Shown here: in pieces, positions 1,319-60,649 of the stretch
Layout of the letters: each line of letters opens with the position of its first letter
Numbering within the stretch: position 1 is the stretch's first letter
Assembly: GCF_902652985.1 (NCBI RefSeq)
Contig: NC_047019.1
Location: 14,318,097-14,382,096, forward strand
Length of the DNA stretch: 64,000 bases
DNA from: Pecten maximus
Lineage: Eukaryota
Direction of reading: 5' to 3'
Position numbers and translations under genes: made by a program
Notes under the pieces: generated by a model
What the model was told of the DNA's origin: nothing
Databases searched by the model: none
What the model saw: the letters and a program-made list of their open reading frames with translations, nothing else

Positions 1319-1506
1319 GACGGCATCTTCGAATATGAATCAATGGATGAGGAAATGATGAACCGTATAATGAATACAACGTATGTGGACTGTTGTTTAC
1401 CTCACAAGTCTGAAGAAGAAGAAGAAGAAGAAGAAGAAGGAGAAGAAGAAGAAGAAGAAGAAGAAGAAGAAGAAGGAGGAGAAGAAGAAGAAGAAGATAA
1501 AGATGA
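1319..1506 (+). CDS. Putative exon of the plus-strand host gene: DGIFEYESMDEEMMNRIMNTTYVDCCLPHKS followed by a poly-Glu tract
   Basis: ttttag acceptor at 1311-1318, GTAAGT donor at 1507; only one open frame; the coding GAA microsatellite gives a poly-E run; phase does not join directly to the next exon I found. Confidence 0.4.
1412..1494 (+). repeat. (GAA)n microsatellite inside the coding exon
   Basis: Perfect GAA triplet run with GGA interruptions. Confidence 0.9.
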
Positions 1507-2312
1507 GTAAGTCTAGCTGAAAATTTTCTGAATCAAATTATTTATATTATAAAACTAGATATCAAATAAGACAGTTAAATTGCTTTAACACTTTGAAAAA
1601 CACTTGAGATACAGGTTGTGTTTAATTTACAAGAAATGCTATAAGAACTCGGATACTATTTCCAAGGTATTGTTACTGTTCTATGTCCCATGGGTTTCTT
1701 TATAAAGTGAATTTCTATAAATATACACATATATAAAAGACTGCTATATAAAGCATTATTTTTTTTAAAGATATATGGCAGCCCCTGTACAAGTAAAGAA
1801 GCTGGAACCTGAATTGTTTACTATGCCGTTGAAGATGCAGAGTGCAACTGTGAGTTTATATGAATATCTAAATTTCACACTCTGGCCACCAATTAATACT
1901 GATTTATGTTTTAACATGGATTGGCATTCAATCAACTTGTTATTTATTAAAAAAATTTGTTAAAAAAATTGTTATTTGCAAGATTGTGTTCATGTTGACA
2001 ATACATAAAAATCTGATGGCTGTATGATAATGCTTAATTTATGCTTTTGAATTTTCTTATTACAATAAAACTTGCCTAATATGACCCCATAGGGTGAGTG
2101 ACCGTTTTGGTCACATTAGACAGGTTGTCAGAAAAGTCAAAGTTTTATGCTTTGAGAAAAAGCAGAATTTCACAGGAATATACATACAGTGTCAGATTTA
2201 GCAGGGTGTTGGAAAAGTCAGATGTCGTATTAGACAGATTTTACTGTATTAGAATAAACTATATATAGGATGTATACCAACATAAAAGTTTTCTAGATCA
2301 TATAATAGTAGA

Positions 2313-5300
2313 TATAACAATGTGTCCATTTCTCAGTTTCTGATGGACTATGTACTAGATATGACTGCGTGTCCATTTGTCAGACTCTGATGGACTATGA
2401 ACTAGATATGACTGCGTGTCCATTTGTCAGACTCTGATGGACTATGTACTAGATATGACTGCGTGTCCATTTGTCAGACTGATGGACTATGTACTAGATA
2501 TGACTGCGTGTCCATTTGTCAGACTCTGATGGACTATGTACTAGATATGACTGCGTGTCCATTTGTCAGACTCTGATGGACTATGTACTAGATATGACTG
2601 CGTGTCCATTTGTCAGACTCTGATGGACTATGTACTAGATATGACTGCGTGTCCATTTGTCAGACTCTGATGGACTATGTACTAGATATGACTGCGTGTC
2701 CATTTGTCAGACTCTGATGGACTATGTACTAGATATGACTGCGTGTCCATTTGTCAGACTCTGATGGACTATGTACTAGATATGACTGTGTCCATTTGTC
2801 AGACTGATGGACTATGTACTAGATATGACTGCGTGTCCATTTGTCAGACTGATGGACTATATACTAGATATGACTGCGTGTCCATTTGTCAGACTGATGG
2901 ACTATATACTAGATATGACTGTGTGTCCATTTGTCAGACTGATGGACTATATACTAGATATGACTGCGTGTCCATTTGTCAGACTCTGATGGACTATGTA
3001 CTAGATATGACTGTGTCCATTTGTCAGACTCTGATGGACTATGTACTAGATATAAGTGTGTGTCCATTTGTCAGACTGATGGACTATGTACTAGATATGA
3101 CTATGTCCATTTGTCAGACTGATGGACTATATACTAGATATGACTGTGTGTCCATTTGTCAGACTCTGATGGACTATGTACTAGATATGACTGTGTCCAT
3201 TTGTCAGACTGATGGACTATGTACTAGATATGACTGTCCATTTGTCAGACTTTGATGGACTATGTACTAGATATGACTGTGTGTCCATTTGTCAGACTCT
3301 GATGGACTATGTACTAGATATGACTGTCCATTTGTCAGACTCTGATGGACTATGTACTAGATATGACTGTCCATTTGTCAGACTTTGATGGACTATGTAC
3401 TAGATATGACTGCGTGTCCATTTGTCAGACTGATGGACTATATACTAGATATGACTGCGTGTCCATTTGTCAGACTGATGGACTATGTACTAGATATGAC
3501 TGCGTGTCCATTTGTCAGACTCTGATGGACTATGTACTAGATATGACTGCGTGTCCATTTGTCAGACTCTGATGGACTATGTACTAGATATGACTGCGTG
3601 TCCATTTGTCAGACTCTGATGGACTATGTACTAGATATGACTGTGTCCATTTGTCAGACTGATGGACTATGTACTAGATATGACTATGTCCATTTGTCAG
3701 ACTGATGGACTATATACTAGATATGACTGTGTGTCCATTTGTCAGACTCTGATGGACTATGTACTAGATATGACTGTGTCCATTTGTCAGACTGATGGAC
3801 TATGTACTCGATATGACTGTCCATTTGTCAGACTTTGATGGACTATGTACTAGATATGACTGTGTGTCCATTTCTTTGAGACTCTGATGGACTATATACT
3901 AGATATGACTGTGTGTCCATTTGTCAGACTGATGGACTATGTACTAGATATGACAGTGTGTCCATTTGTCAGACTGATGGACTATGTACTAGATATGACC
4001 GTGTCCATTTGTCAGACTGATGGACTATATACTAGATATGACTGCGTGTCCATTTGTCAGACTGATGGACTATATACTAGATATGACTGTGTGTCCATTT
4101 GTCAGACTGATGGACTATATACTAGATATGACTGCGTGTCCATTTGTCAGACTCTGATGGACTATGTACTAGATATAAGTGTGTGTCCATTTGTCAGACT
4201 GATGGACTATGTACTAGATATGACTATGTCCATTTGTCAGACTGATGGACTATGTACTAGATATGACTGTGTGTCCATTTGTCAGACTTTGATGGACTAT
4301 GTACTAGATATGACTGTGTGTCCATTTGTTTGAGACTCTGATGGACTATATACTAGATATGACTGTGTGTCCATTTGTTTGAGACTCTGATGGACTATGT
4401 ACTAGATATGACTGCGTGTCCATTTGTCAGACTCTGATGGACTATGTACTAGATATGACTGTGTCCATTTGTCAGACTCTGATGGACTATGTACTAGATA
4501 TGACTGTGTGTCCATTTGTCAGACTGATGGACTATATACTAGATATGACTGTGTGTCCATTTGTCAGACTCTGATGGACTATGTACTAGATATGACTGTA
4601 TGTCCAGTTGTCAGACTCTGATGGACTATGAACTAGATATGACTGTCCAATTGTCAGACTGATGGACTATGTACTAGATATGACTGTGTCCATTTGTCAG
4701 ACTGATGGACTATGAACTAGATATGACTGTCCATTTGTCAGACTGTTGGACTATGTACTAGATATGACTGTGTCCATTTGTCAGACTGATGGACTATGTA
4801 CTAGATATGACTGTGTGTCCATTTGTCAGACTCTGATGGACTATGTACTAGATATGACTGTGTCCATTTGTCAGACTGTTGGACTATGTACTAGATATGA
4901 CTGTGTGTCCATTTGTCAGACTGTTGGACTATGTACTAGATATGACTGTGTCCATTTGTCAGACTCTGATGGACTATGTACTAGATATGACTGTGTCCAT
5001 TTGTCAGACTGATGGACTATGTACTAGGTATGACTGTGTCCATTTGTCAGACTCTGATGGACTATATACTAGATATGACTGTGTCCATTTGTCAGACTGA
5101 TGGACTATGTACTAGATATGACTATGTGTCCATTTGTCAGACTGTTGGACTATGTACTAGATATGACTGCGTGTCCATTTGTCAGACTCTGATGGACTAT
5201 GTACTAGATATGACTGTGTGTCCATTTGTCAGACTCTGATGGACTATGTACTAGATATGAGTATGTGTCCATTTGTCAGACTGATGGACTATGTACTAGA

Positions 5301-5395
5301 TATGACTGTGTCCATTTGTCAGACTTTGATGGACTATATACTAGATATGACTGTGTGTCCATTTGTCAGACTCTGATGGACTATGTACTAGGTAT
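2313..5395. repeat. Intronic minisatellite, unit 43-47 bp (gtgtccatttgtcagactctgatggactatgtactagatatgactgc), about 68 copies
   Basis: Regular tandem periodicity with ct and gc indel variants. Confidence 0.95.
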
Positions 5396-5498: not shown

Positions 5499-5599
5499 TA
5501 TGAAGAATATGCAGAACCTTGTGATATGTATGGGGATGTTGATATGGAAGTGGAACAATCAGAAGCTGCTCAAGCTGAAATTGAAATATCATATGCTAT
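5499..5599 (+). CDS. Host gene exon: YEEYAEPCDMYGDVDMEVEQSEAAQAEIEISYA
   Basis: tgttgcag acceptor, GTAAGT donor at 5600; phase-consistent with downstream exons. Confidence 0.55.
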
Positions 5600-6188
5600 G
5601 TAAGTGTTCTGTATCATATGGTATGTAATAATTCTGTAATACATGACAGGTAAGTGCTCTGTATTACATGACAGGTAAGTGTTCTGTATTACATGCTAGG
5701 TAAGTGTTCTATATATCATGCTAGGTGAGTGTTCTGTATAACATGCTAGGTACATGTAAGTGTTCTGTATTACATACCAGGTAAGTGTTCTGTATTACAT
5801 GCTAGGTAACTAAGTGTTCTGTATTACATGCTAGGTAACTAAGTGTTCTGTATTACATGCTATGTAAGTGTTTTATAATACATGCTAGGTAAGTGTTCTG
5901 TATTACAAACCAGGAAAGTGTTCTATAAGTGTTCTGTATTACATGCTAGGTAAGTGTTCTATATTACATGCTAGATAAGTGTTCTGTATTACATGCTAGG
6001 TAAGTGTTCTATATTACATGCTAGATAAGTGTTCTATAAGTGTTCTGTATTACATGCTAGGTAAGTGTTCTATATTACATGCTAGATAAGTGTTCTGTAT
6101 TACATGCTTGGTAAGTGTTCTATATTACATGCTAGGTAAGTGTTCTATATATCATGCTAGGTAAGTGTTCTGTATTACATGCTAGGTT
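5600..6188. repeat. 25-bp minisatellite (gtaagtgttctgtattacatgctag), about 23 copies, starting exactly at the exon donor
   Basis: Every unit carries the GTAAGT donor consensus and ends in AG. Confidence 0.9.
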
Positions 6189-6214
6189 ATCGCTATACTT
6201 CTCAGATAGTTCTT

Positions 6215-6610
6215 GATGGATCTTTGTCAGAAGGACCAAGGTGAGCTTATGCCATACTGTGGCATCCGTTGTCCGTCCGTCAACAATTAACTTCTTCTTC
6301 ATAACCACAGATGGGAATTTGACGAAATTTGGTCAAAAGCATCCCTATGGGTTGGGACTCAAAATTGTACAAATGGTGGGGCTGACCCCACAGGGACTTA
6401 GGGACGGGGCCAAACAGGGTCAATTTGGCTAAATTGATATAAACAACTTCTTCTCTGAAACTAAGCAGTGGATATCACTCATATTCACCTAGTAGCACCC
6501 CCTTGTGGTAGGGATTCAAAATTGTACAAATGGTGAGGCTGAGGGGCGTCATTCTTGTTTCATATTCTCATGAAACCAGGTGAGCGATACAGGCCCTTTG
6601 GGCCTCTTGT
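6215..6610 (+). mobile_element. Satellite-carrier family member with about 2 internal ~170-bp units
   Basis: 5' ggtgagcttatgcc..tccgttgtccgtccgtcaacaatt..cttcttcttcataacc; 3' aaccaggtgagcgatacaggccctttgggcctcttgtt; homologous to 26990-28562. Confidence 0.5.
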
Positions 6611-7169
6611 TCTTTTCAATCAATTTCAAAAATAGAGAAATGTTAAGAGAAGCTGGGAATAAGGAGTTTTGCGTGCTCTCAGTAATTTCTGATCGTTCAA
6701 TGGGCACCAAGATCCATTTGGGATCTGGGCCCAGTCGTTCAGAAGGTGATCAGCCTAATCACTGAATTAGTGAAAGTCTCATTTCTCCTTTAATTAAGAC
6801 CTTCTATGTGCATATTCCTTGAAATAGGCAGAAATAAAATGACTGAGGAGTGTTATATTTTCATAAACATTTTTGTCAAGTTAGTTTTACCAGAAACAAT
6901 TTTATCAAGATTTTAGAATTGTTGTTAAACTGTTGTTAGCCTATTCAACTTTTTAACAACTGGCCTCTGTTTTCAACAGAGGTATTGTGAGTACTTCAGT
7001 TCATCATCACACTAACCACTAATAATACCTAAGATTTGTTATTAACAAATCAATAGGTCTACTGTTAACAGTTTATAGATTTGCATTATAGTTCGGTTAA
7101 ATCATTGACAAGGTGACAGAACTTTTTATGATAAACAATAAATATTTATAAATGATACTTTTTTTCCAG

Positions 7170-7248: not shown

Positions 7249-7553
7249 GTAAGTTTATATTAATTTACATTTTACATTTCAGTTTCAAATTCACTCTATG
7301 TTACTCTGCATGGTCCCTTTATTGATCATTGATACTAACAAGATGGCTTTTAGATTGATCATCAAATCTGAACTGCACACCCTTTAATATTCAGACCTGT
7401 TTGTGTGAGTTGTGCCAGCATTTGTTTTTAAAAAGTTTTTGTCTACCAGTAATCTTGGCTAGAAAATTCCCAGCGTTCTCTTGATTTTGATATAATCATC
7501 ACACTTTAAAGTACACATGTTTTGCTGTATAGAATAAGATGCCGGGGTAAACA

Positions 7554-8454
7554 CAAATGTAATGGGTGTACAAAAATGTAATGGGTATACGAAAATGTAA
7601 TGGGTATACGAAAATGTAATGGATATACGAGAAATGTAATGGGTATACAAAAATGTAATGGGTATACAAAAATGTAATGGTTATACGAAAATGTAATGGA
7701 TATACGAGAAATGTAATGGATATACAGAAATGTAATGGGTATACAAAAACGTAATTATACAAAAATGTAATGGGTGTACAAAAATGTAATGGGTATACGA
7801 AAATGTAATGGGTGTACAAAAATGTAATGGTATACAAAAATGTAATGGGTATACGAAAATGTAATGGGTATACGAGAAATGTAATGGGTATACAAAAATG
7901 TAATTATACAAAAATGTAATGGATATACGAGAAATGTAATGGTTATACAAAAATGTAATTATACAAAAATGTAATGGGTATACAATGTAATGGATATAAA
8001 AAAATGTAATGGTATACAAAAATGTAATGGATATACAGAAATGTAATGGGTATACGAAAATGTAATGGATATACGAGAAATGTAATGGATATACAAAAAT
8101 GTAATGGTATACAAAAATGTAATGGGTATACAGAAATGTAATGGGTATACAAAAATGTAATTATACAAAAATGTAATGGGTATACAAAAATGTAATGGAT
8201 ATACGAGAAATGTAATGGATATAAAAAAATGTAATTATACAAATATGTAATGGGTATACAAAAATGTAATGGGTATACGAAAATGTAATGGATATACAGA
8301 AATGTAATTGGTATACAAAAATGTAGTTATACAAAAATGTAATGGGTATACGAAAATGTAATGGATATACGAGAAATGTAATGGATATACAAAAATGTAA
8401 TGGGTATACAAAAATGTAATGGATATACAGAAATGTAATGGGTATACAAAAATG
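7554..8454. repeat. 19-21-bp minisatellite (aaatgtaatgggtatacra)
   Basis: Tandem units; the same array resumes at 16098-16215 on the far side of the LINE+satellite insertion. Confidence 0.9.
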
Positions 8455-8865
8455 TTCCGAGAGGATTACTACCTTGCCGTGGTCCGGAAGCTTGAGTGTT
8501 TCAATGAAACTTTGGGCTTTGCTGGCCAGAGCGTTATAAGTTCTTGTTAGGTCAAACCATGCCAGAGAGGTCAAAGTTGAGGAACCAGACCAAAAGTAAT
8601 CTAACCCAGTAGCTCAATTTTGAGCCAAACCATTTGCCGTGGTTTGCGTCCCGTAAATCCGGGGAAGAAGGTCCTGGTGGTTGAGTAATTTGGATGTTGA
8701 TTATAAATCATGCCAGTCTGCAACACACGACTTTGGCTTCAAACTCGGACTAGACGGGTGGCAATATGGTCCCTGTATTTTCAATCGGCTGGAGAACCAA
8801 ACTGCTGCTTTCTCTTTCGAGTATACTATTTTATGTAACCCTGACACTTTCGACACTGGAAACCC

Positions 8866-10251
8866 GTGCTAACAAAAGTGTCCCCTAGTTGGGCTCCGTG
8901 GTGGGTGGGGACAAAAATAGTGAACAACTTCTACATACATATGGGTACAAACGATCAAAATGACACAAAACGCAAAGGCGAGTCATCAAACACAACAGAC
9001 ACAGCACAAACAAAAACAATACCTAGTCAAACCTCACAAGCAAAAACTATACCAAATCAAACCCAAACTTCGATCAAAACTACATCTGGAACTGGAGCCT
9101 CTCCGCTGTTCCCTCACTTCCTAACCATGTCCTCCAGAGATAAGGGCAAGAAAACTTCCGAGTTATCACCCATCCTGTTGAGGAAGGGAATTCAGGGAAT
9201 AGCGGGTGAGGTAAAATCCATCAAGCCAATGAGATCTGGTATTCTCCTCATTGAGGTTTACCGCCGTCAACAGGCGATGAACCTCATGGGTACTTCCAGT
9301 TTTGCCGGTCTCAATGTCGAGGTGAAGCCCCATGCTTCACTGAATTCTTCAAAAAGTATAATCAGGTGCCCCGCATTGAACAACGACTCCGAGGCCGACA
9401 TACTGGAGTACTTCCAACATGTTGAGAACATCCATGTTTCGGAGGTTAGGCGGATCCGCTCCAGACGCAATGGTCAAACAATCAACACAAATACATTCAT
9501 TCTCACGTTCGGAGTGCCGCAGCTACCTCAGACGGTAACAATAGGTTACCAGAGGTACGGTGTCTCCGCCTACATCCCCAACCCTCTGCGATGCCGTAAC
9601 TGTCAAAAGTACGGACATCACGAGGACAGATGTGGACGGAACACTGTCTGCGAACACTGCGGACGTGAAGGCCACACAGACAACGACCAATGCAACATTG
9701 TTGGCAAGCGTTGTATAAACTGCCAGGGTGACCATGCGGCCTCATCTCGAGACTGTCCTGCCTGGAAGAAGGAGAGGGAGATCCTCCGGTTGAAATATAC
9801 CGAGAATATTTCCTTTCCTGAAGCCAGGAGGATTGTCGAGAGTAAGGACAGCACAAACCCCACGTTTGCCACAATTGTCAAACAGTCGACAGCACGTACC
9901 ATCTCGGTGAAGGATACCTCTATCCAAGCATTTGAGGACCAGTCTGCCTGGGGTCCAGATGCTCCCGAGATGGCAAACCTACCAAAATACAAACACTTAA
10001 TTGGGAGAGCCTCACGCTGGAGTGCCACCCCCAAACCTCCAGAGCCATCAAAACCCATACAACTCGCACCACCATCAATCGTACCATCGCCATCGAATAC
10101 AAAAACAATCGTAAACGAACGGAAATCTAAGACAGGTGCCGACCACCATAGACAACGAACTCTGTCACAGCCGTCGGTCGACACCTCCAGAATTACCAAG
10201 CGACCTAGCTGCCACTACACCCCCTCAAGATCAAAGAACACCAAAATCTAG
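8866..10251 (+). CDS. LINE ORF1, gag-like nucleic-acid-binding protein with 3 CCHC zinc knuckles
   Basis: CRNCQKYGHHEDRC, CEHCGREGHTDNDQC, CINCQGDHAASSRDC; the true start may be the internal Met near 8944. Confidence 0.8.
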   Translation: MLTKVSPSWAPWWVGTKIVNNFYIHMGTNDQNDTKRKGESSNTTDTAQTKTIPSQTSQAKTIPNQTQTSIKTTSGTGASPLFPHFLTMSSRDKGKKTSELSPILLRKGIQGIAGEVKSIKPMRSGILLIEVYRRQQAMNLMGTSSFAGLNVEVKPHASLNSSKSIIRCPALNNDSEADILEYFQHVENIHVSEVRRIRSRRNGQTINTNTFILTFGVPQLPQTVTIGYQRYGVSAYIPNPLRCRNCQKYGHHEDRCGRNTVCEHCGREGHTDNDQCNIVGKRCINCQGDHAASSRDCPAWKKEREILRLKYTENISFPEARRIVESKDSTNPTFATIVKQSTARTISVKDTSIQAFEDQSAWGPDAPEMANLPKYKHLIGRASRWSATPKPPEPSKPIQLAPPSIVPSPSNTKTIVNERKSKTGADHHRQRTLSQPSVDTSRITKRPSCHYTPSRSKNTKI

Positions 10252-10443
10252 GGTACGGATCAATAGGCATCCCTCCCTAAACAACAAACCGGCCAAGGGT
10301 TCAGATGACCCTATCCTTGGCTACAACAGGTATGGCGTTCTTATGGACGACAGTGAACAGCATATAACCAACGTTGCTGTTACTAGACAGCCTATACCAG
10401 GCATCCCTGTCAGTCCGAAGAACGACCAGCATGAACCAGGATA

Positions 10444-13400
10444 ATGGCCAATAATAGCAACACGATCATACAATGGAATATACGCGGACTACGGGCAAAT
10501 ATAGAAGAGTTTCAAAATTTATCTAAAGAGTTTAGACCTGCCTTATTTTGCCTACAGGAGGTCATGTTAAAAAAGCCAATTACCCTTAGAAATTTCTCGC
10601 TTTATAATAGCACCACAGCTATAGGAATCAAAGCAGCAGGAGGCGCAGCTGTAGCTGTCAATAAGAATATTCCTCACAGAATGATCACGTTAAACACAAA
10701 TTTACAGGCTGTCGCTGTATGTGCAACTTTACACAGACAAGTAACTGTCTGTTCAATTTATCTTCCTCCAAGTGTTGCTTTCACTAGTGAGCAACTGAAT
10801 AACCTCGTCTCTCAACTCCCAACACCATACATAATTCTCGGAGATTTTAATGGGCATAACAGCCTGTGGGGCTCTCCGAACACAGACGAGAGAGGAAGAC
10901 GTATTGAGGAATTTATAGATAAAAACAACTTGTGCCTGTTTAACAATAACACCCCAACATATTTACACCCTGCTACAGGCTCTTGTAACCACATAGACCT
11001 ATCACTATGCCACCAATCCATTTTTCTCGATTATGACTGGAAGGTTAATAATGATTTATGTGGGAGTGACCACTTCCCTATTTTTCTAAATAATATTGGG
11101 ACTCCTCTTGATAAACCACTTCCTCGATGGAATATGCACAAAGCGGATTGGGTCCAATTCCAACACATGTGCAACGAGGAGCTTACTGTAGAAAAACTAA
11201 CTAACCTTGATGGTTCATTTAAAACATTCACCAAAACTCTTACTTCTATTGGCGAAAAAACTATACCAAAGTCCGTTCCAAAACCTACAAAGTTTCTTCT
11301 ATCTGAAGAATCTTTTATTAATAGATCCGGCCGAAAGGCAGCTCTAAGACGATTTTTGACTTCCCCAACTGTTGAAAATTACAATAATTTTAAAATTTGG
11401 AGGGCAAAGGCTCGACGATCTATCAAATCCGATAAAAAGAATAGCTGGAAGGAATACGTTTCTAAAATATCTTCAAACACATCATCTTAAAAGGTATGGG
11501 ATCAATTGCGAAAAATAAGTGGAAAAAGAAAAACGGCACCATCATCCCACCTTATCAATAAAAAGCAAATTTTCTCTTCTATATCAGAAATTGCAAATGC
11601 ATTCGCCAAAAATATAGCCCAAAACTCATCGGCCAAAAACCACTCCCAAAAATTCCAACGATTTAAAAAAGAGAAAGAAAAGAAACGTCTTAATTTTAAA
11701 TCCTCCAACACAGAAAGTTACAATAAACCATTTGATCTCCCAGAGTTGCTTGAATCCTTAAACAAATCACAAGATTCGGCAGCTGGGCCAGATGAAATTC
11801 CGTACCAATTCCTAAAACATCTACCGGAATCATCTTTACGTTGTCTCCTTTATATTTTTAATCAAGTCTACGAATCAGGAAAGATCCCAGATTCTTGGAA
11901 GGAATCTACAATTATTCCAATTCCAAAACCTGGTAAGGACACCACTGAACCAAATAATTATCGTCCAATCTCTCTAACGAGCTGCATATGCAAAACACTT
12001 GAACGGATGATAAACACTAGACTAGTTTGGTTCCTTGAATCTAATAATATTTTGAGTCCACTCCAAAGTGGATTCAGAAACCGCAGAGGAACGGTAGACC
12101 ATCTGGTCAGGTTAGAAACCTTCATTCGAGAAGCTTTCGCGAAGAAGGAGCATCTAGTCGCTGTGTTCTTTGATCTGGAGAAAGCATACGATACTACATG
12201 GCAATATGGTATTATGAAAGACCTGCATGAAATTGGTGTACGTGGGAATCTCCCAAAATTCATCGCAAACTACATATCTGACAGACATTTTAAAGTTCGC
12301 GTAGGTTCAACTTATTCTGAAACAGCCAAACAGGAAATGGGAGTCCCTCAGGGTGGAATCCTTTCCGTAACACTTTTCGGCCTGAAAATCAACAGTATAA
12401 CTAAATGTCTCGGTAAGTCAACTGAAGGGTCTCTCTTCGTTGATGACTTCTTGATCTGCTATAGGTCAAAGAACATGCACACGATAGAACGACAACTTCA
12501 ACAATGTCTAGGCAAACTACAAACATGGGCAGATGAAAACGGCTTCAAATTCTCCAGATCAAAAACTGTCTGCATGCACTTCTGCCAAAAACGAAAACCA
12601 CATAATGATCCAGATCTAACATTAAATGGTATCAAAATTCCAGTTGTCGAGCAGACTAAATTCCTCGGACTAATTTTCGATTCGAAACTCTCCTTTGTTC
12701 CACATATAAAATACTTGAAAGATAAGTGCTCAAAGGCAATGAACATTTTACGAGTACTATCCCATACTGACTGGGGCGCAGACCGTGAAATGCTTCTGCG
12801 CCTTTATAGGACGCTTATTCGATCAAAACTCGACTATGGCTCCATCGTTTATGGATCTGCACGAAATTCTTACCTGCAGATGCTAGATCCTGTCCAAAAC
12901 CAAGGATTACGTCTGGTACTTGGTGCTTTTCGAACAACACCTGTGCAGAGCCTTTATGTAGAGGCAAATGAACCATCCTTAAATGACAGAAGGAAAAACC
13001 TTTCTCTTCAATATGCCGCCCAATTGAAATCCAACCCGAAAAACCCAGCTTTTGACCTTGTTGTCAATCCGCAATACCAAAACATATTTACTCAAAACCA
13101 AAAACTCATACCAACATTTGGCATTAGAATTTCTAACTTTCTTCAGGAACTTATCATAAGTTTAGACAACATAGGCAAGTACACCGTAACTGATGTACCG
13201 CCATGGCTTGTCAAAACACCTGATATTAACCTTACTCTACATGAGAGGGCAAAGTCGAGTGTATTACCCCAAGAGCACAAATCTTCCTTTCGGGAATGCA
13301 TTAAAGATTTTCACGTTCAGATCTTCACTGATGGCTCAAAAGATGGAGTAAAGGTCTCCGCAGCATGCTATTCCGATCGCCATTGCTCTTCAATCCGCTT

Positions 13401-13953
13401 ACCAGATGGTGCCTCTATCTTCTCTGCGGAAGCATGTGCCATCGATTTGGCCCTCGACCATATCGAAGAACAACGCATTAGAAAGGCAATAATTTGTTCC
13501 GACTCTCGATCTGTCCTTCAGAATTTACAATCACGAGATCCAAAGAATATACTCATACAAAACCTTGTTTTACGAATATCTCGTATCTTAAAAAAATGCA
13601 AAATAACACTACTTTGGGTTCCGAGCAATGTCGGAATTAAAGGCAACGAACTTGCTCTAAATCTGCAACAAACAAATATTAAAATACCATATACAGATTT
13701 CAAATCTGTAATTAGTTCTGCCATTCAGAGTAAATGGCAGCAACGCTGGTCTCTCGAGACGAGCAACAAACTTTTTAAAGTACAACCAAAACTTAAAACA
13801 TCAAAACCAAGTCGGAAGGATCGTAGAGAGGAAATAGTCCTCTCTCGGCTCCGTACCGGGCACACATATCCTACTCATTCGTTCCTTTTGAAACGAGAGG
13901 ACCCACCGGTGTGCTATGCATGTGATGCTCAATTCACAGTGGAGCATTTTTAG
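10444..13953 (+). CDS. LINE ORF2 (AP endonuclease, reverse transcriptase, RNase H); one in-frame TAA at 11488-11490 splits it into the 10444-11490 and 11506-13953 ORFs
   Basis: Both track ORFs are in the same frame (start coordinates ≡ 1 mod 3); the domain order is canonical; the C-terminal motif CYACDAQFTVEHF stops before the usual final Cys. Confidence 0.8.
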
Positions 13954-16077
13954 CCCACCATCATCAGATGGTGGGCTGTTCAAATCGCCCTGCGTCCGTG
14001 GTCCGTCCGTCCGTCCGGCCGTCCGTCCCTCCATCCCTCCGTCCGTAAACAATTTTTGTTATCGCTATTTCTCAGAAAGTACTGAAGGGATCTTTCTCAA
14101 ATTTCATATGTAGGTTCCCCTTGGTGCATAGTTATGCATATTGCGTTTTGAGACCAATCGGATAACAACATGGCCGACAGGCAGCCATCTTGGATTTTGA
14201 CAATTGAAGTTTGTTATCGCTATTTCTGAGAAAGTACTGAAGGGATCTTTCTCAAATTTAATATGTAGGTTCCCCTTGGTGCCTAGTTATGCATATTGCG
14301 ATTTGAGACCAATCGGAAAACAACATGGCTGACAGGCAGCCATCTTGGATTTTGACAATTGAAGTTTGTTATCACTATTTCTGAGGAAGTGCTGAATGGA
14401 TTTTTCTGAAATGTCATATATAGGTTTCCCTTGGTGCTTAGTTATGCATATTGCGTTTTGAGACCAATCCGAAAACAACATGGCCGACAGGCAGCCATCT
14501 TGGATTTTGACAATTGAAGTTTGTTATCGCTATTTCTGAGAAAGTACTGAAGGGATCTTTCTCAAATTTAATATGTAGGTTCCCCTTGGTGCCTAGTTAT
14601 GCATATTGCGATTTGAGACCAATCGGAAAACAACATGGCTGACAGGCAGCCATCTTGGATTTTGACAATTGAAGTTTGTTATCGCTATTTCTGAGAAAGT
14701 ACTGAAGGGATCTTTCTCAAATTTAATATGTAGGTTCCCCTTGGTGCCTAGTTATGCATATTGCGATTTGAGACCAATCGGAAAACAACATGGCTGACAG
14801 GCAGCCATCTTGGATTTTGACAATTGAAGTTTGTTATCACTATTTCTGAGGAAGTGCTGAATGGATTTTTCTGAAATGTCATATATAGGTTTCCCTTGGT
14901 GCTTAGTTATGCATATTGCGTTTTGAGACCAATCCGAAAACAACATGGCCGACAGGCAGCCATCTTGGATTTTGACAATTGAAGTTTGTTATCGCTATTT
15001 CTGAGAATGTACTGAATGGATCTTTCTCAAATTGCATATGTAAGTTTCCCTTGGTGCCTAGTTATGCATGTTGTGTTTTGAGACCAATCTGAAAACAACA
15101 TGGCCGACAGGCAGCCATCTTGGATTTTGACAATTTAAGTTTGTTATCACTATTTCTGAGAAAGTACTGAATGGATCTTTCTGAAATTTCATATGTAAGT
15201 TTCCCTTGGTGCCTAGTTATGCATATTGCGTTTTGAGATCAATTGGAAAACAACATGGCCGACAGGCAGCCATCTTGGATTTTGACAATTGAAGTTTGTT
15301 ATCGCTATTTCTGAGAAAGTACTGAATGGATCTTTCTGAAATGTCATATATAGGTTTCCCTTGGTGCTTAGTTATGCATATTGCGTTTTGAGACCAATCC
15401 GAAAACAACATGGCCGACAGGCAGCCATCTTGGATTTTGACAATTGAAGTTTGTTATCGCTATTTCTGAGAATGTACTGAATGGATCTTTCTCAAATTGC
15501 ATATGTAAGTTTCCCTTGGTGCCTAGTTATGCATGTTGTGTTTTGAGACCAATCTGAAAACAACATGGCCGACAGGCAGCCATCTTGGATTTTGACAATT
15601 TAAGTTTGTTATCACTATTTCTGAGAAAGTACTGAATGGATCTTTCTGAAATTTCATATGTAGGTTTCCCTTGGTGCCTAGTTATGCATATTGCGTTTTG
15701 AGATCAATTGGAAAACAATATGGCCGACAGACCGCCATCTTGGATTTTGATAATTGAAGTTTGTTATCTCTATTTCTCAAAGTACTGAATGGATCTTTCT
15801 CAAATGTCATAAGTAGGTTCCCCTTGGTCCCTTGTATTGCATTTTTGGACCAGTCTGTCCTGAAAACAACCTGGCAAACAAACAGCCATTATCGTTAAAT
15901 CTCAAATTTCTTATATAGCTAGGATTCCCTTGTTTGAAAAGTACTGGAGGGATGTCTCAATTTGCACAGATTAGTAAAATGAAGGGAAAAGTAGAGAAAA
16001 GATCAATCTGACATGGAACCTATGAAGATCATTCAATGGTGGGCGCCAAGATCCCTCTGGGATCTCTTGTTTAATAG
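13954..16077 (+). mobile_element. Satellite-carrier module abutting the LINE ORF2 stop: 5' palindrome agcccaccatc/gatggtgggct, GTCCGTCC repeats, a 155-bp satellite, and a 3' ...ctctgggatctcttgtt
   Basis: The 5' TAGCCCACC resembles the carrier 5' end TTAGCTCACC; the 3' tail resembles GGGCCTCTTGTT. Confidence 0.5.
14060..15790. repeat. 155-bp satellite, about 11 units, with a 465-bp (3-unit) higher-order repeat (HOR)
   Basis: The caattgaagtttgtt landmark recurs every 155 bp; identical minus-strand track ORFs at 14287, 14752 and 15217 lie 465 bp apart. Confidence 0.9.
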
Positions 16078-16097: not shown

Positions 16098-16215
16098 ATA
16101 TGGAAATGTAATGGATATACAGAAATGTAATGGATATACAGAAATGTAATGGATATACGAGAAATGTAATGGGTATACAAAAATGTAATGGTACACAAAA
16201 ATGTAATGGGCAATG
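16098..16215. repeat. Resumption of the 19-21-bp aaatgtaatggrtatac minisatellite
   Basis: Same unit as 7554-8454. Confidence 0.85.
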
Positions 16216-17468: not shown

Positions 17469-18408
17469 GGATTCAGTAGATGACTTGTTAGATCTCTCAG
17501 CAGACTTGGAGACAGATACTATATACAGTGCACCTTTTTCTGCTTCTGAAATGCGCATAGGTCCCCCTCCCTCATCACAATCTGCCATGGCTTCTAGATC
17601 AGCAGGACTTCCTCCCCAACCTGCACAACCTGCCATGATGGCTCTTAAGTCAGCAGAATCTCGTCGACCTGCACAATCTTTCATAGCTTCTGAAAGAGCA
17701 GCACCTCCTCCACCTCCTCCTCCACCTTCAAAGCCTACCATGTCATATGAATTAGAGAAAGCTTCTCCTAAATTAGCAATGTTTGATGTAATGGCTGATG
17801 AATCAAGAGACCATCCTCCCCCAGTCCCACTTCTTGCCATGTCCAGAGGAGCTCCTCCACCTCCAGGAGGTCCTCCCCCAGTACCATTGAATGTCATAAA
17901 TAAAGGCGCACCTCCCCCAGTCCCTCTGTATGATACATTAGGAGGTAGTCCTCCTCCAATCCCACAAGGTCGCATGAGAGGTCTAGTAAGGCGAGGTATT
18001 GAACTAACCCCACATTCTGCAATTGCAATGAAATCCACAAGATCTCCTCCACAGCAGGCCAAGGATTTTACATCAGCCATTCCTCCTCCCCCACCTCCAC
18101 AGCAGGCCCAGGCTTTTACATCACCTATTCCTCCTCCCCCACCTGATCAACAGCAGGCCCAGGCTTTTACATCCACCATTCCTCCTCCCCCACCTCAACA
18201 GCAGGCCCAGGCTTTTACATCGCCTATTCCTCCTCCCCCACCTCCACAGCAGGCTAAGACTTTTATATCAGCAGGGTCCTCTCCCCCTAAGTCAGTATCA
18301 CAACCTCCCATCTTTGCCCGTAAAATGTCTTCCGAAAAGAATTCCTTCAAGAGTGATGCAAATGTATCCATTGCTGTGCCTCTATCTTTAGACTTGGACC
18401 TTCTTGAG
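17469..18408 (+). CDS. Host gene large exon of 313 codons: proline-rich, with polyproline blocks (GAPPPPGGPPPVPL) and four QQAQAFTSPIPPPPPP repeats
   Basis: ttttgtag acceptor, GTAGGA donor at 18409; track ORF 17485-18420; FH1/WASP-like profilin- or SH3-binding polyproline character. Confidence 0.7.
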
Positions 18409-18649
18409 GTAGGACTTTGAGATTTTGTTATTTACAATGTGCATACAAAAGTTACATAACATCTCCAGCATATGTAAGCTTAATTTGGATATACAGAATT
18501 TGTAATTGTCATCATGTTAAAATCATTATTTTAATATCATAGATTATTATTAACCATCTACTTCAATAAGCTGGTACTTACAGAATAATTTCTATGGACC
18601 AGTTTTAGAAAAATAAAACTGATTCTGGAGTCTTATGGACTTCCCTCAT

Positions 18650-21600
18650 TTGAAAAGTGTAATGAACTTTCTTCACACTCTAAGTGAATTGGACTTTCAT
18701 CATATTATAAACGTAGTGGCTTTCCCTCACATTATAAGTGTATTAGACTTCCCTCACATAATGTGTATAATGGACTTCCCTCACATTATATAAGTGTAAT
18801 GGATTTCCCTCACATTATAAGTGTATTGGACTTCCCTCACATTATAAGTGTATTAGACTTCCCTCACATGATACATGTAAGTGTATTGGACTTTCCTCAC
18901 ATAATAAGTGTATTGGACTTCCCTCACATTATAAGTGTATTGGACTTCCCTCACATAATAAGTGTATTGGACTTCCCTCACATTATAAGTGTATTGGACT
19001 TCCCTCACATAATATGTGTAATGGACTTCCCTCACATTATATAAGTGTATTGGACTTCCCTCACATTATAAGTGTATTGGACTTCCCTCACATAATATGT
19101 GTAATGGACTTCCCTCACATTATAAGTGAATTGGACTTCCCTCACATGATAAGTGTATTGGACTTCCCTCACATTATAAGTGTATTGGACTTTCCTCACA
19201 TGATTAGTGTATTGGACTTCCCTCACATTATATCAGTGTATTGGACTTCCCTCACATAATATGTGTAATGGACTTTCCTCACATTATAAGTGTATTGGAC
19301 TTCCCTCACATTATAAGTGTATTGGACTTCCCTCACATTATATAAGTGTATTGGACTTCCCTCACATAATATGTGTAATGGACTTTCCTCACATTATAAG
19401 TGTATTGGACTTCCCTCACATTATAAGTGTATTGGACTTCCCTCACATTATATAAGTGTATTGGACTTCCCTCACATTATAAGTGTATTGGACTTCCCTC
19501 ACATTATAAGTGTATTGGACTTCCCTCACATTATAAGTGTATTGGACTTTCATATTATAAGTGAATTGGACTTCCCTCACATTATAAGTGTATTGGACTT
19601 TCATCATATTATAAACGTAGTGGCTTTCCCTCCCTTTATAAGTGTATTGGACTTCCCTCACATTATAAGTGTATTGGACTTTCATCATATTATAAGTGAA
19701 TTGGACTTCCCTCACATTATAAGTGTATTGGACTTTCATCATATTATAAACGTAGTGGCTTTCCCTCCCATTATAAGTGTATTAGACTTCCCTCACATTA
19801 TAAGTGTATTGGACTTCCCTCACATGATAAGTGTATTGGACTTCCCTCACATTATAAGTGTATTGGACTTCCCTCACATTATAAGTGTATTAGACTTCCC
19901 TCACATTATAAGTGTATTGGACTTCCCTCACATTATATAAGTGTATTGGACTTCCCTCACATGATAAGTGTATTGGACTTCCCTCACATTATAAGTGTAT
20001 TGGACTTCCCTCACATTATAAGTGTATTGGACTTCCCTCATATTATAAGTGTATTGGACTTCCCTCACATGATAAGTGTATTGGACTTCCCTCACATGAT
20101 AAGTGTATTGGACTTCCCTCACGTTATAAGTGTATTGGACTTCCCTCACATTATAAGTGTATTGGACTTCCCTCACATTATAAGTGTATTGGACTTCCCT
20201 CACATTATAAGTGTATTGGACTTCCCTCACATTATAAGTGTATTAGACTTCCCTCACATTATAAGTGTATTGGACTTCCCTCACATTATAAGTGTATTGG
20301 ACTTCCCTCACATTATATAAGTGTATTGGACTTCCCTCACATTATAAGTGTATTGGACTTCCCTCACATTATAAGTGTATTGGACTTCCCTCACATTATA
20401 AGTGTATTGGACTTCCCTCACATTATAAGTGTATTGGACTTCCCTCACATTATAAGTGTATTGGACTTCCCTCACATTATAAGTGTATTGGACTTCCCTC
20501 ACATTATAAGTGTATTGGACTTCCCTCACATTATAAGTGTATTGGACTTCCCTCACATTATAAGTGTATTGGACTTCCCTCACATTATAAGTGTATTGGA
20601 CTTCCCTCACATTATAAGTGTATTGGACTTCCCTCACATTATAAGTGTATTAGACTTCCCTCACATTATAAGTGTATTGGACTTCCCTCACATTATAAGT
20701 GTATTGGACTTCCCTCACATTATAAGTGTATTGGACTTCCCTCACATTATAAGTGTATTGGACTTCCCTCACATTATAAGTGTATTGGACTTCCCTCACA
20801 TTATAAGTGTATTGGACTTCCCTCACATTATAAGTGTATTGGACTTCCCTCACATTATAAGTGTATTGGACTTCCCTCACATTATAAGTGTATTGGACTT
20901 CCCTCACATTATAAGTGTATTGGACTTCCCTCACATTATAAGTGTATTGGACTTCCCTCACATTATAAGTGTATTGGACTTCCATCACATTATAAGTGTA
21001 TTGGACTTCCCTCACATTATAAGTGTATTGGACTTCCCTCACATTATAAGTGTATTGGACTTCCCTCACATTATATAAGTGTATTGGACTTCCCTCACAT
21101 TATAAGTGTATTGGACTTCCCTCACATTATATAAGTGTATTGGACTTCCCTCACATTATAAGTGTATTGGACTTCCCTCACATTATAAGTGTATTGGACT
21201 TCCCTCACATTATATAAGTGTATTGGACTTCCCTCACATTATAAGTGTATTGGACTTCCCTCACATTATAAGTGTATTGGACTTCCCTCACATTATAAGT
21301 GTATTGGACTTCCCCTCACATTATAAGTGTAATGGACTTCCCTCACATAATAGGTGTAATGGACTTCCCTCACATTATAAGTGTATTGGACTTCCCTCAC
21401 ATTATAAGTGTATTGGACTTCCCTCACATTATAAGTGTATTGGACTTCCCTCACATTATAAGTGTAATGGACTTCCCTCACATTATATAAGTGTATTGGA
21501 CTTCCCTCACATTATAAGTGTATTTGACTTCCCTCACATTATATAAGTGTAATGGACTTCCCTCACATTATAAGTGTATTTGACTTCCCTCACATTATAT

Positions 21601-23212
21601 AAGTGTATTGGACTTCCCTCACATTATAAGTGTATTGGACTTCCCTCACATTATAAGTGTATTGGACTTCCCCTCACATTATAAGTGTAATGGACTTCCC
21701 TCACATAATAGGTGTAATGGACTTCCCTCACATTATAAGTGTATTGGACTTCCCTCACATTATAAGTGTATTGGACTTCCCTCACATTATAAGTGTATTG
21801 GATTTCCCTCACATTATAAGTGTATTGGACTTCCCTCACATTATAAGTGTATTGGACTTCCCCTCACATTATAAGTGTAATGGACTTCCCTCACATTATA
21901 AGTGTAATGGACTTCCCTCACATAATAGGTGTAATGGACTTCCCTCACATTATAAGTGTATTGGACTTCCCTCACATTATAAGTGTATTGGACTTCCCTC
22001 ACATTATAAGTGTATTGGACTTCCCTCACATTATAAGTGTAATGGACTTCCCTCACATTATATAAGTGTATTGGACTTCCCTCACATTATAAGTGTATTT
22101 GACTTCCCTCACATTATATAAGTGTAATGGACTTCCCTCACATTATAAGTGTATTTGACTTCCCTCACATTATATAAGTGTATTGGACTTCCCTCACATT
22201 ATAAGTGTATTGGACTTCCCTCACATTATAAGTGTATTGGACTTCCCTCACATTATAAGTGTATTGGACTTCCCCTCACATTATAAGTGTAATGGACTTC
22301 CCTCACATAATAGGTGTAATGGACTTCCCTCACATTATAAGTGTAATGGACTTCCCTCACATTATAAGTGTAATGGACTTCCCTCACATTATAAGTGTAT
22401 TGGACTTCCCTCACATTATAAGTGTATTAGACTTCCCTCACATTATAAGTGTATTGGACTTTCCTCACATTATAAGTGTAATAGACTTCCCTCACATTAT
22501 AAGTGTATTGGACTTCCCTCACATTATAAGTGTATTGGACTTCCCTCACATTATATAAGTGTAATGGACTTCCCTCACATTATATAAGTGTATTGGACTT
22601 CCCTCACATTATAAGTGTAATGGACTTCCCTCACATTATAAGTGTATTGGACTTCCCTCACATTATAAGTGTATTGGATTTCCCTCACATTATAAGTGTA
22701 TTGGACTTCCCTCACATTATAAGTGTATTAGACTTCCCTCACATGATAAGTGTATTGGACTTTCCTCACATTATAAGTGTAATGGACTTTCCTCACATTA
22801 TAAGTGTAATGGACTTCCCTCACATTATAAGTGTATTGGACTTCCCTCACATTATAAGTGTATTGGACTTCCCTCACATTATAAGTGTATTGGACTTCCC
22901 TCACATTATAAGTGTATTGGACTTCCCTCACATGATAAGTGTATTGGACTTCCCTCACATGATAAGTGTATTGGACTTCCCTCACATTATAAGTGTATTG
23001 GACTTCCCTCACATGATAAGTGTATTGGACTTCCCTCACATTATATGAGTGTATTATACTTCCCTCACATGATAAGTGTATTAGACTTCCCTCACATTAT
23101 AAGTGTATTGGACTTTCCTCACATTATAAGTGTAATAGACTTCCCTCACATTATAAGTGTATTGGACTTCCCTCACATGATAAGTGTATTGGACTTCCCT
23201 CACATGATAGAT
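18650..23212. repeat. 27-bp minisatellite (acttccctcacattataagtgtattgg), about 165 copies, 4.5 kb, intronic
   Basis: Strict 27-bp periodicity with 29-bp tatataagtg variants; produces long artifact ORFs on both strands. Confidence 0.95.
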
Positions 23213-38891: not shown

Positions 38892-39179
38892 TTGAGGTTG
38901 TGATGAACAGATATACTGAGTTGTCTGACAATAATTGATAATGTTTTTCGATATATGACTGCTTACTTCATGTGATCATAGTGAGTGGCGATGTTTTCAG
39001 ACTAAAGACACACTTCAACTACATTTCCCTAGTATGTACTGTGTATAAAGACAGATTTATCTTTTCCCTAGCCAAAATGGAGAAGCCTCCATAGAGAAAT
39101 ATCTATGTATATCACTTCAGGTTATACATTCAATGACCTGTACAGTACCGCGGTAAATACAATGTTGTCTGTTTAACAG

Positions 39180-39276
39180 CTAGGAGGATGGACCAGGAGT
39201 GAGGTGGAGAAAGAACTCTTCATCAATTTGTCTGTCTGTATCAAGGCCTTAAATGCTGCTGGACTGAAGTCACTAG
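39180..39276 (+). CDS. Host gene exon: LGGWTRSEVEKELFINLSVCIKALNAAGLKSL
   Basis: gtttaacag acceptor, GTAAGT donor; in-frame with track ORF 39204. Confidence 0.55.
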
Positions 39277-39690
39277 GTAAGTTGGTGACTTTCCCAACCA
39301 TGTCGGTTTCTATGGGTACTCCTATTTCTCTTCCCAATAACAACAAGCTTTCTTGTGCATTTCACAAAATATGTCGAAAACAATTAATTAACTCCTTTTT
39401 GGTTTAATGTTGGCTTAGGTTCTATATCAACTGATTGATGGAGGAGAGTAATTTGTCATAACACTCCATAGGAAACTCACCCAATTCAACCTGTTTACAC
39501 CATTCAAACAATAACTTAATTTCTTTAAACTGAACCCCCAGTAATTTGGCAGTGAAAAAGTACATGTATAAGGCTCAATTAATTAAAATACTAGATGTGC
39601 ATTATTGAATTCATTGAGCAGGAATCTTACTATAAAATATCAATAGATATATTGCTAGATATTTTACTTTATAAAATATTAATTTTATAG

Positions 39691-39986
39691 GAATGAAGGT
39701 TGCTATGGAAATGGAGAATGTTTTGGTGACGGCGTTTGTTGTCATGTGGATACTCAAGACACTAGCACCAGAGTTATTCCCCCTGAATACTTCCGTGAGG
39801 AGTTGGTCAGACACTGCTGTGGAAGTAGCTGCAGCTGCACTCGAGATTTATGACCACGATCGGTCACTGCTGAACAAAGCCATTAATTACTGTAATCAGA
39901 TAGAGAGGGCCCATCCAGGTGTATCTTCTACCTTGGAACTGGGACCAAACTGGTTTGAAGTGGCATCAAAAATATTGGGGTTTTAG
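39691..39986 (+). CDS. Host gene terminal coding exon ending in TAG: (G)MKVAMEMENVLVTAFVVMWILKTLAPELFPLNTSVRSWSDTAVEVAAAALEIYDHDRSLLNKAINYCNQIERAHPGVSSTLELGPNWFEVASKILGF*
   Basis: ttttatag acceptor; the phase joins exactly to the previous exon (G+GA); track ORF 39693-39986. Confidence 0.6.
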
Positions 39987-40191: not shown

Positions 40192-41590
40192 TTAAGGATT
40201 TTTAGGTCACCTGAGACGAAGTCTCAAGTGACCTATTCTAATCGCCTTTTGTCCGTCGTCGTGCGTCGTGCGTCGTCCGTCGTGCGTTCGTAAACTTTTT
40301 ACATTCTCGACTTCTTCTCCAAAACCACTTAACAAAATTCAATGAAATTTGGCAGAAAGTTTCTATGGCTGAAGGTCAACCAAAATTGTGAATTATATGG
40401 TCCCCACCCCCCAGGGGCCTGAGGGGTGGGGCCAAAAAGGGTCAAATTGACTAAAACTTCAAAAATCTTCTTCTCTACTCTCAGATATGGTGGAGTCAAA
40501 CACTCTTTATAGATGAAAGGGTCTTGTGGTGCTTTACCAAAATTGTGAATTGCATGACCCTGGGGTCTCACGTTTGCCCCTGGGGAGGGGGTAAACTTTA
40601 CTATAGTTTATATAGGGAAATCACATTTTTGACTATTATTTGTTTGATTTGTATTGGAATTCATTCTAACTTGTATCAAATTATCGGCATGGGATGACAG
40701 TTTGATGGTATGTACATGTTGGCCCTAATTGACCCCCAGGGGCTGGTGGGCGGGGCCAAAAAGGGTCAAATTGACTAAAATTTCAAAAATCTTCTTCTCT
40801 ACTCTCAGATGTGGTAGAATCAAATACTCTTCCTAGATGGAAGGGTCTTAAGGTGCTTTACCAAAATTGTGAATTTCATGACCCTGGGGTCTCACGTTTG
40901 CCCCTGGGGAGGGGGTAAACTTTAGTATAGTTTATATAGGGAAATCACATTTTTGACTATTATTTGTTGGATTTCTATTGGAATTCATTCTAACTTGGTT
41001 CAAATTATCAGCATGGGATGACAGTTTGATGGTATGTACATGTTGGCCCTGGTTGACCCCCAGGGGCTGGTGGGCGGGGCCAAAAAGGGTCAAATTGACT
41101 GAAATTTCAAAAATCTTCTTCTCTACTCTCAGATATGGTAGAATCAAATACTCTTCATAGATGGAAGGGTCTTAAGGTGCTTTACCAAAATTGTGAATTT
41201 CATGACCCTGGGGTCTCACGTTTGCCCCTGGGGAGGGGGTAAACTTTACTATAGTTTATATAGGGAAATCACATTTTTGACTATTATTTGTTTGATTTCT
41301 ATTGGAATTCATTCTAACTTGGTTCAAATTATCAGCATGGGATGACAGTTTGATGGTATGTACATGTTGGCCCTGGTTGACCCCCAGGGGCTGGTGGGCG
41401 GGGCCAAAAAGGGTCAAATTGACTGAAATTTCCAAAATCGTCTTATCAACTATATGTTAGAATCAAATACTCTTCATAGACTGACCCCATTAGGACTGAT
41501 GGGTGGGGCCAAAAAGGGTCAATTTAGTTGGCCGAAATATTTCAAATCTCAGGTGACCGTTAAGGCCCTTTGGGCCTCTTGTTTCATTTT
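40192..41590 (+). mobile_element. Satellite-carrier element with about 3.3 units of a ~360-bp satellite
   Basis: 5' ttaggtcacctgagacgaagtctcaagtgacct hairpin plus gtccgtcgtcgtgcg repeats; 3' caggtgaccgttaaggccctttgggcctcttgtt; units homologous to 1-470. Confidence 0.55.
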
Positions 41591-44114: not shown

Positions 44115-44379
44115 CTGAAAGAAAGAAACAGGAATGGCATGTTGTAATTGAACTTAGTTTTGAAAGGGATACATGTACACATAAAAATCAAAAAACCTGT
44201 ACAAAACCATTTTATTTTTAAATCGGATAAAAATTCTGCATGCCCCACATACCAAATACATCATTAGAATCAGACTCATAAATCTAGCGGAATTACCCAT
44301 GGAGGTAATTGATAATGAAAGCGCAGTACATTATATAAATTAAATGGATTGAAATATGTAAATATAGCAGTACATGTAC

Positions 44380-60558: not shown

Positions 60559-60649
60559 GTATGGAAACATAGCGTTGGTTTATTTTTTTTCAATTTATAG
60601 AGTCATAAGAATACGGCTATGACCTCAATATATGATTGACATGTCTATA

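Follow-up and report, generated by a model that had tools for sequence, protein, structure and literature searches.

The window, i.e. the whole 64-kb stretch of Pecten maximus DNA that was analysed, has a GC content of 37% and a CpG observed/expected ratio of 0.50. Tandem repeats are abundant, 26 tracts making up 32% of its length, so that a minisatellite beside an exon is not in itself unusual here. The array described below is a 25-bp minisatellite that begins at the 3' end of a short predicted exon, exon C, at the entrance of an 11.9-kb intron. An exon model, A to D, has been built by hand on the plus strand; all its borders are AG and GT, and the phases of its exons are compatible. In the sequences quoted, a slash marks the splice border. 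The features of this part of the gene are the following:

1319-1506, plus strand: predicted exon A, with a (GAA)n poly-Glu tract, ending with 2 nt
1771-1849, plus strand: predicted exon B, starting with 1 nt and ending in phase 0, the same phases as exon beta (APVVQFSK...) of the scallop Ylistrum balloti
2309-5395, plus strand: minisatellite in the intron preceding exon C, with 68 copies of a 45-bp unit, the last of them 103 bp short of the exon
5499-5599, plus strand: predicted exon C, 101 nt, YEEYAEPCDMYGDVDMEVEQSEAAQAEIEISYA plus 2 nt, proposed from its acceptor ttgcag/, its donor /GTAAGT and its phase
6188-6611, plus strand: pearl/DTC84-like sequence, a degenerate (CCGT)n and a core repeat of ~158 bp, adjoining the 3' end of the array
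about 8845-13953, plus strand: LINE in sense orientation in the 11.9-kb intron after the array, with endonuclease, reverse-transcriptase and RNase H domains
17469-18409, plus strand: exon D, Pro-rich with AFTS repeats, its first nucleotide completing a codon, identified by homology

When 1.84 billion representatives are searched exhaustively with HMMER, a single match emerges (E = 9.6e-13), XP_060065435.1, an uncharacterised protein of Y. balloti. This protein maps colinearly to positions 17506-18333, 37907-38023, 38701-38805, 39177-39308 and 39687-39980, the last segment being 73% identical. The array therefore lies within a real plus-strand gene, which extends at least over 1319-39983. Word-indexed protein searches with exons C and D, with exons A to D minus low-complexity sequence and with the conserved C-terminal domain yield no matches, the first of them being probably swamped by poly-Pro words (8000 candidates). 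Pfam finds nothing significant in the exon A-D model, in the C-terminal domain or in the annotated Y. balloti protein P0001, and a PDB sequence search with the C-terminal domain gives chance-level prolactin matches only.

The homologous Y. balloti locus (63 kb of JAUZWB010000143.1, hereafter L001) has served for comparison. There, the homologue has as its immediate upstream neighbour a PARP4-like gene of equal orientation (L001:1-3047) with BRCT, PARP, VIT and VWA domains. Because of this neighbour, seen in Y. balloti only, it may be guessed that the annotation has divided a PARP4-type gene and that the gene of the window represents its C-terminal part. Two coding repeats are also present in the gene. 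A (GAA)28 microsatellite at 1412-1497 in predicted exon A would encode a poly-Glu tract of ~30 residues. The Pro-rich exon harbours a 48-bp repeat of the PPPPPQQAQAFTS type, with 4.7 copies at 18046-18272 and ~15 at L001:35002-35728; the copy number of this coding minisatellite thus varies between the two species.

Predicted exon C starts in phase 0, and its final AT forms an ATG codon with the first G of exon D. Its body (5499-5586) is unique in the window. Between exon B, which closes in phase 0, and exon D, the first codon of which lacks 2 nt, a coding sequence of length 2 mod 3 is needed. A scan of this interval for open AG...GTRAG exons of such length gives 13 candidates, of which all but exon C and one of 47 nt fall in repeat or LINE/transposon sequence. 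The intron phases around the exon C segment are equal in both species, with 0 after B/beta and 1 nt opening the Pro-rich exon. Exon C is judged likely to be a genuine exon.

The array itself comprises the following features:

5587-6187, plus strand: 25-bp minisatellite of 24 units, two of which are cut to 11 nt (TRF, unit tables and pattern searches)
5587-5611, plus strand: unit 0, made of 13 exon nt (TATCATATGCTAT) and 12 intron nt, matching the consensus at 22/25 positions
5600-5605, plus strand: presumed authentic 5' splice site TAT/GTAAGT, 7/9 against CAG/GTAAGT
5925-6146, plus strand: two copies of a 111-bp higher-order repeat (25+25+25+25+11), from TRF and the unit listing

A sequence-only reading of the window had reported a 25-bp tandem array here, following an exon that ends ...GCTAT/GTAAGTGTTCTGTAT, and both observations hold. 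TRF locates the array at 5593-6187 (period 25, 23.4 copies, 71% matches, score 357-605), with higher-order periods of 50 and 111, and pattern searches agree; the count of 24 units comes from a unit-by-unit decomposition that includes the two 11-nt units. The consensus unit, GTAAGTGTTCTGTATTACATGCTAG, occurs 20 times at three mismatches or fewer, always inside 5650-6185; shuffled sequences lead one to expect 0. No copies are found by pattern search in the rest of the 64-kb window, and the unit is absent from L001, which brings the sequence searched to ~127 kb.

In register, the array starts at 5587, i.e. 13 nt inside predicted exon 5499-5599. With the register of 13 exon nt plus 12 intron nt used for the edge test, the four 25-nt windows upstream of unit 0 match the consensus at 5-8 of 25 positions, which is chance level, as against the 22 of unit 0. 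This indicates that the first monomer spans the exon-intron junction and that the array has a sharp edge inside the predicted exon. Units 0 and 1 match each other at 21/25 positions; the exon tail reappears in unit 1 (5612-5636) as TATCATATGGTAT, with 12/13 identities (P ~2e-6), and BLAST aligns 5587-5603 to 5612-5628 at 94%. If the exon model is right, the first monomer unites the exon's 3' end with the start of the intron. Proximal units retain the junction's own variants and interior units have a common derived variant, TATTACATGCTAG, which is the usual picture of an array whose edge units escape homogenisation. Further along, TRF detects the 111-bp period in 4.0 copies over 5701-6149. Units 13-17 and 18-22, compared by reading the unit listing, differ at 2 of 111 positions, which is indirect evidence of a recent unequal exchange. 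No Rfam family is detected in the whole window.

The row of donor motifs is less regular than initially described. The sequence-only reading counted about 23 tandem GTAAGT motifs and assumed that every unit recreates a consensus 5' splice site; GTAAGT opens 14 of the 24 units, the authentic donor among them, and eight units have no GT. Of the 23 downstream units, 13 begin with GTAAGT, one with GTGAGT and one with a weak GTAATA, while the GT-less ones read ATAAGT (five), CTAAGT (two) or GAAAGT (one). The motif AG/GTAAGT is found in only 10 units. Three pseudo-donors are perfect (9/9) with respect to the U1 consensus CAG/GTAAGT, at 5650, 5675 and 5781 (+50, +75 and +181), and eight others score 8/9 (5700, 5756, 5889, 5950, 6000, 6061, 6136 and 6161). 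An in-frame TAA lies just past the donor (5602-5604, intron +2 to +4), the frame reading ...SYAM and then stop, so that any downstream donor would give a truncated open reading frame. This makes the suggested frame-shifting 25-nt steps moot; the spacing is in any case mixed, with steps of 11, 29 and 31 besides 25. A coding repeat has been rejected on account of the stop codons in the exon frame directly after the donor.

The array probably is a boundary-spanning (“mirage”-type) intronic minisatellite: a duplicate of the exon-intron junction that was amplified and tolerated, the first donor defining the exon. A 25-bp segment astride the junction, with 13 nt from the end of exon C and 12 nt from the start of the 11.9-kb intron, would have been tandemly duplicated, by replication slippage or unequal exchange to judge from the structure. 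It would then have been amplified to 24 units, its interior homogenised to the derived variant and the 111-bp block doubled recently. Since the donor lies within the seed, GTAAGT would come to be repeated along the intron. The first, authentic donor would define the exon and the remaining array would be removed as intron, by analogy with the published systems discussed below; an array spliced out in this manner would be tolerated, not selected. A transcript spliced from a downstream pseudo-donor, the perfect CAG/GTAAGT sites at +50 and +75 being the most plausible, would run into the TAA and encode a shortened product that is probably unstable. Minor use of perfect pseudo-sites is plausible, as three of them lie 50-181 nt downstream. 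These three sites score 9/9 against 7/9 for the authentic donor, which speaks against silence. As perfect pseudo-sites competed in the human F7 gene (PMC1557585), silence of the pseudo-donors is not guaranteed here. The series of slipped or NMD-prone isoforms that had been envisaged is speculative. The birth of a minisatellite from a splice junction, also proposed from the sequence, is by contrast supported by the boundary-spanning first monomer and by a single-copy orthologous junction at 38078-38110. This junction and four donor-anchored arrays of L001 are the elements of the comparison between the two scallops:

38078-38110 of the window, plus strand: single-copy exon-donor junction ACTGAAAAACCACAGG/GTGAGTTTGAT, orthologous to the 38-bp unit of L001
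L001:2113-2604: 33-bp unit, 14.8 copies, starting at the GTGAGT of a putative exon ending GACAAT/
L001:15146-18138: 51-bp unit, 62 copies, starting 31 nt inside an exon ending ...EQYK
L001:23104-25261: 43-bp unit, 50 copies, 98% identical, starting exactly at the donor of the last small exon
L001:48168-49780: 38-bp unit, 42.6 copies, starting 19 nt inside an exon ending ...ETDILQ

The exons at three of the four L001 arrays encode residues of the annotated protein P0001. The junction CCACAGG/GTGAGTTTGAT (38078-38110) is single-copy in the window and its orthologue is amplified 42-fold in Y. balloti. This supports the view that arrays in this gene were born from exon-donor junctions, and makes a junction origin the natural reading for the exon C array too. 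The small exon at the donor of which the 43-bp array of L001 starts is followed by an intron of ~11.9 kb and then by the Pro-rich exon, so that this array occupies the same position as the 25-bp array. The homology between these two units at equivalent positions is not significant (z = 1.3), and the units of the five donor-anchored arrays are unrelated except for the GTRAGT motif. The two arrays at the equivalent position are treated as independent. Judging from the unrelated units and from the absence of the 25-bp unit in L001, the five events are likewise independent of one another.

Among 33 distinct arrays of both loci, five have a unit that carries GTRAGT in the sense orientation, whereas the motif is missing from the antisense strand of all units. 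Shuffles lead one to expect 1.0 GTRAGT-bearing array (P of five or more = 0.003), and all five are the donor-anchored ones. Donor-spanning arrays number 4, against 0.69 expected (~6-fold, P = 0.006) under a rough model in which the seed of each array is placed uniformly in non-repeat sequence; this excess is modest and model-dependent. No acceptor-spanning array is found in the two loci (127 kb). The ~6-fold excess at donors suggests that a purely neutral account is not fully sufficient. It has been considered that donor-anchored minisatellites are systematic in scallop genes, through a donor-linked mutational process or through selection for rows of U1 sites in introns that repeats have enlarged. 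This reading, based on five independent arrays with unrelated units at donors in 127 kb of two species, is tentative and rather unlikely. The share of arrays in the gene span is 47% for the window and 74% for L001, and the exon C array is best read as a product of slippage that is tolerated in introns so rich in minisatellites (47-74%).

L001 displays further repeat features. Residues 133-138 of XP_060065435.1 (EHCIAG) are encoded only by a 17-nt segment, GAACACTGTATAGCAGG, of the 43-bp repeat unit; the annotated model therefore needs an array-derived micro-exon to keep the frame. This segment occurs 51 times in the 43-bp array or at its 3' edge, 50 of these occurrences being flanked by AG/ and /GTAAGT, and the array (L001:23104-25261) holds 50 GTAAGT. 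The 17-nt micro-exon could be real or a gene-prediction artefact. The 51-bp array is triplicated together with its two flanking exons as a 4-5 kb segmental repeat, with copies at L001:6065-7975 and 10032-12042, and this triplication probably accounts for the duplicated N-terminal peptide of the annotated protein. A 39-bp intronic minisatellite of the window (83 copies, 33539-36765) is ~74% identical to a 43-bp array of L001 (89 copies, L001:40574-44391). The two lie at corresponding positions of the colinear genes, and some minisatellites appear to be older than the species split.

The account of the array as a duplicated junction depends on exon C. If exon C is not an exon, the array would be an ordinary intronic minisatellite with GTAAGT in its unit by chance and the open reading frame would be coincidental. 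Homologues of exon C have not been found in protein or DNA searches: tblastn and blastn detect nothing above chance for equivalents of exons A, B and C in the Y. balloti locus, and the pairwise protein alignment to the N-terminal region of the Y. balloti protein is marginal (E = 0.043). Moreover, an open frame of 36 codons is not rare at 37% GC (estimated at ~0.08 per frame), and in a window of which ~32% is tandem repeat, arrays lie close to almost everything. Against this stand the coding length of 2 mod 3 needed between exons B and D, for which exon C and the 47-nt sequence are the non-repeat GTRAG candidates, and the properties of exon C itself (an AG acceptor, a perfect GTAAGT and an acidic composition like that of exon A). 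The other four donor-anchored arrays, furthermore, are on exons, and GTRAGT in array units is specific to the sense strand (5 vs 0); a chance GTAAGT in the unit has been rejected. A spurious exon C is accordingly judged decidedly unlikely.

It may also be asked whether the repeated 5' splice sites are functional. They could form a platform for U1 snRNP that helps to define a short exon or guards a long AT-rich intron from premature cleavage and polyadenylation; alternatively, the AG/GTAAGT motifs could act as recursive or decoy sites that tune productive versus unproductive splicing. Recursive splice sites are AG/GTAAGT motifs of long introns; they occur singly, are conserved and follow a strong polypyrimidine tract. 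The exon C array shares with them the juxtaposed AG/GTAAGT motif inside a long intron, but it is tandem and degenerate, with weak tracts, and remains within 600 nt of the donor. The ten AG/GTAAGT motifs, the three 9/9 pseudo-sites and the 11.9-kb intron would fit such a role, as would the frequency of donor-anchored arrays, above that predicted by the uniform-seed model, and the 17-nt micro-exon needed by the annotated Y. balloti protein. Conversely, the loss of GT in eight units and the alternation of GTAAGT with ATAAGT in the distal higher-order repeat suggest that the motif is not being maintained. The five donor-anchored arrays have no more than GTRAGT in common, and the 25-bp array at exon C has no counterpart in Y. 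balloti. The pyrimidine fraction ahead of the array AGs is only 0.44-0.67, and the RNA fold of the exon end with the first eight units is not unusual (z = +1.3), no structure masking the sites. In addition, the published analogues neither disturb nor regulate splicing (PMC1557585, PMC3087553, PMC3902484). A functional role of the repeated sites is therefore held to be very unlikely.

That a transposable element with internal tandem repeats brought the array, the exon 3' end and the donor being exonised from it, is highly improbable and has been rejected: pearl/DTC84-like sequence does adjoin the array and bivalve elements of this sort carry tandem repeats (PMC3879986, PMC7492417), but no dispersed copies between conserved flanks exist in the 127 kb, the 25-bp unit being found nowhere else in the window or L001, the core repeats of the adjoining family (155-324 bp) are unrelated to it, and only the final 13 exon nt are within the array, whose proximal units resemble decayed copies of the junction, not the reverse.

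The boundary-spanning minisatellite favoured here belongs to a class that has already been described, in amphioxus (“mirages”) and in the human genes F7, CBS, IFI6, LMNB2 and PDGF, and the 25-bp array is a further example of it. The closest counterpart is the 37-bp VNTR of F7 intron 7, the first monomer of which comprises the last 4 bp of exon 7 and 33 bp of intron (PMC1557585). It offers five to nine identical sites, and splicing takes the most upstream one alone; pseudo-sites remained silent at consensus values as high as 91, and only perfect ones competed, partially (PMC1557585). The authentic site alone is used in LMNB2 and in PDGF intron 4, whereas CBS intron 13 and IFI6 (6-16) intron 2 use the authentic site and two pseudo-sites, in IFI6 the two most proximal of 25 pseudo-donors in a row (PMC1557585). 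Like these, the exon C array is intronic, has a boundary-spanning first monomer and presents an authentic donor followed by pseudo-donors. It differs from the F7 repeat by its shorter unit (25 bp), by the inclusion of 13 exon nt and by its host, an invertebrate gene with introns that are mostly minisatellite. In F7 the pseudo-sites do not differ from the authentic one, while after exon C many score higher than it (8-9/9 vs 7/9) and a third have been destroyed.

Amphioxus mirages are known from Adh3, troponin C (TnC), the globins BflGb6/9 and PGBD5, where they duplicate splice sites without aberrant mRNAs (PMC3087553, PMC3902484), and they have been proposed to seed micro-exons or new introns. 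As with the exon C array, they are duplications of exon-intron boundaries in a marine invertebrate, with many units bearing AG/GT; as in the scallop arrays, edge units escape homogenisation and the phenomenon is recurrent, in amphioxus across genes. Mirages, however, affect both 5' and 3' exon boundaries and often have longer units (10-160 bp) in few copies, whereas all five cases in the two scallop-type loci are at donors, with 15-62 copies. The VNTR in intron 18 of ABCA7 also has a 25-bp unit. This VNTR and other splicing-associated repeats are likewise intronic, near an exon and of potential influence on splicing, but they are not made from the exon's own donor junction, and their effects are drawn from association or expression data (PMC5954066, PMC10078293). 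No description of such arrays in molluscs has been found in the literature searched.

Taken alone, the array carries little weight; with it, a class known in amphioxus and in human genes gains an example from a mollusc. It constitutes a natural test case for 5' splice-site choice, an authentic 7/9 donor being followed by three 9/9 copies within 50-181 nt. If the first site alone is used, the rule that the most upstream site wins would extend to an invertebrate and to pseudo-sites stronger than the silent ones of F7. More use can be made of the comparative result than of the array by itself: an orthologous junction is present once in one species and 42 times in the other, and the same gene has four additional donor-anchored arrays. 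This suggests that scallop genomes could supply a large sample for the study of repeat birth, of donor preference and of the seeding of micro-exons or new introns. If anything here might merit a genome-wide look, it is only the repeated occurrence of arrays at donors in scallop-type genes. On the practical side, gene predictors and read aligners will be led astray by arrays of this kind where exons end.

Several other elements populate the window. The pearl/DTC84-like sequence next to the array belongs to a family found at 6226-6611, 13990-15832, 27004-28560 and 40257-41480, characterised by a hairpin-like flank, a (CGTC)n = (ACGG)n microsatellite and core tandem repeats of 155-324 bp. Two segments of the first copy have counterparts in the third, 6226-6542 at 27004-27332 (80% identity) and 6546-6611 at 28496-28560 (95%). 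These elements resemble the pearl/DTC84 tandem-repeat-containing MITEs of bivalves (PMC3879986, PMC7492417), and a related 156-bp array is present at L001:36176-36785. The LINE has three long open frames, of 461, 348 and 815 amino acids (8866-13953). A 19-bp unit (GGGTATACAAAAATGTAAT) is repeated at 7545-8455 and at 16103-16210, on either side of the LINE and of the 155-bp-repeat element (14055-15832), and may represent one array split by insertions. Large intronic minisatellites include a 27-bp unit in 168 copies (18636-23209) and a 40-bp unit in 51 copies (31206-33242). DUF7869-type open reading frame fragments on the minus strand (44279-45390) are probably a transposase relic. Downstream, exons with He_PIG and EGF domains (59409-60569, plus strand) are part of another gene.
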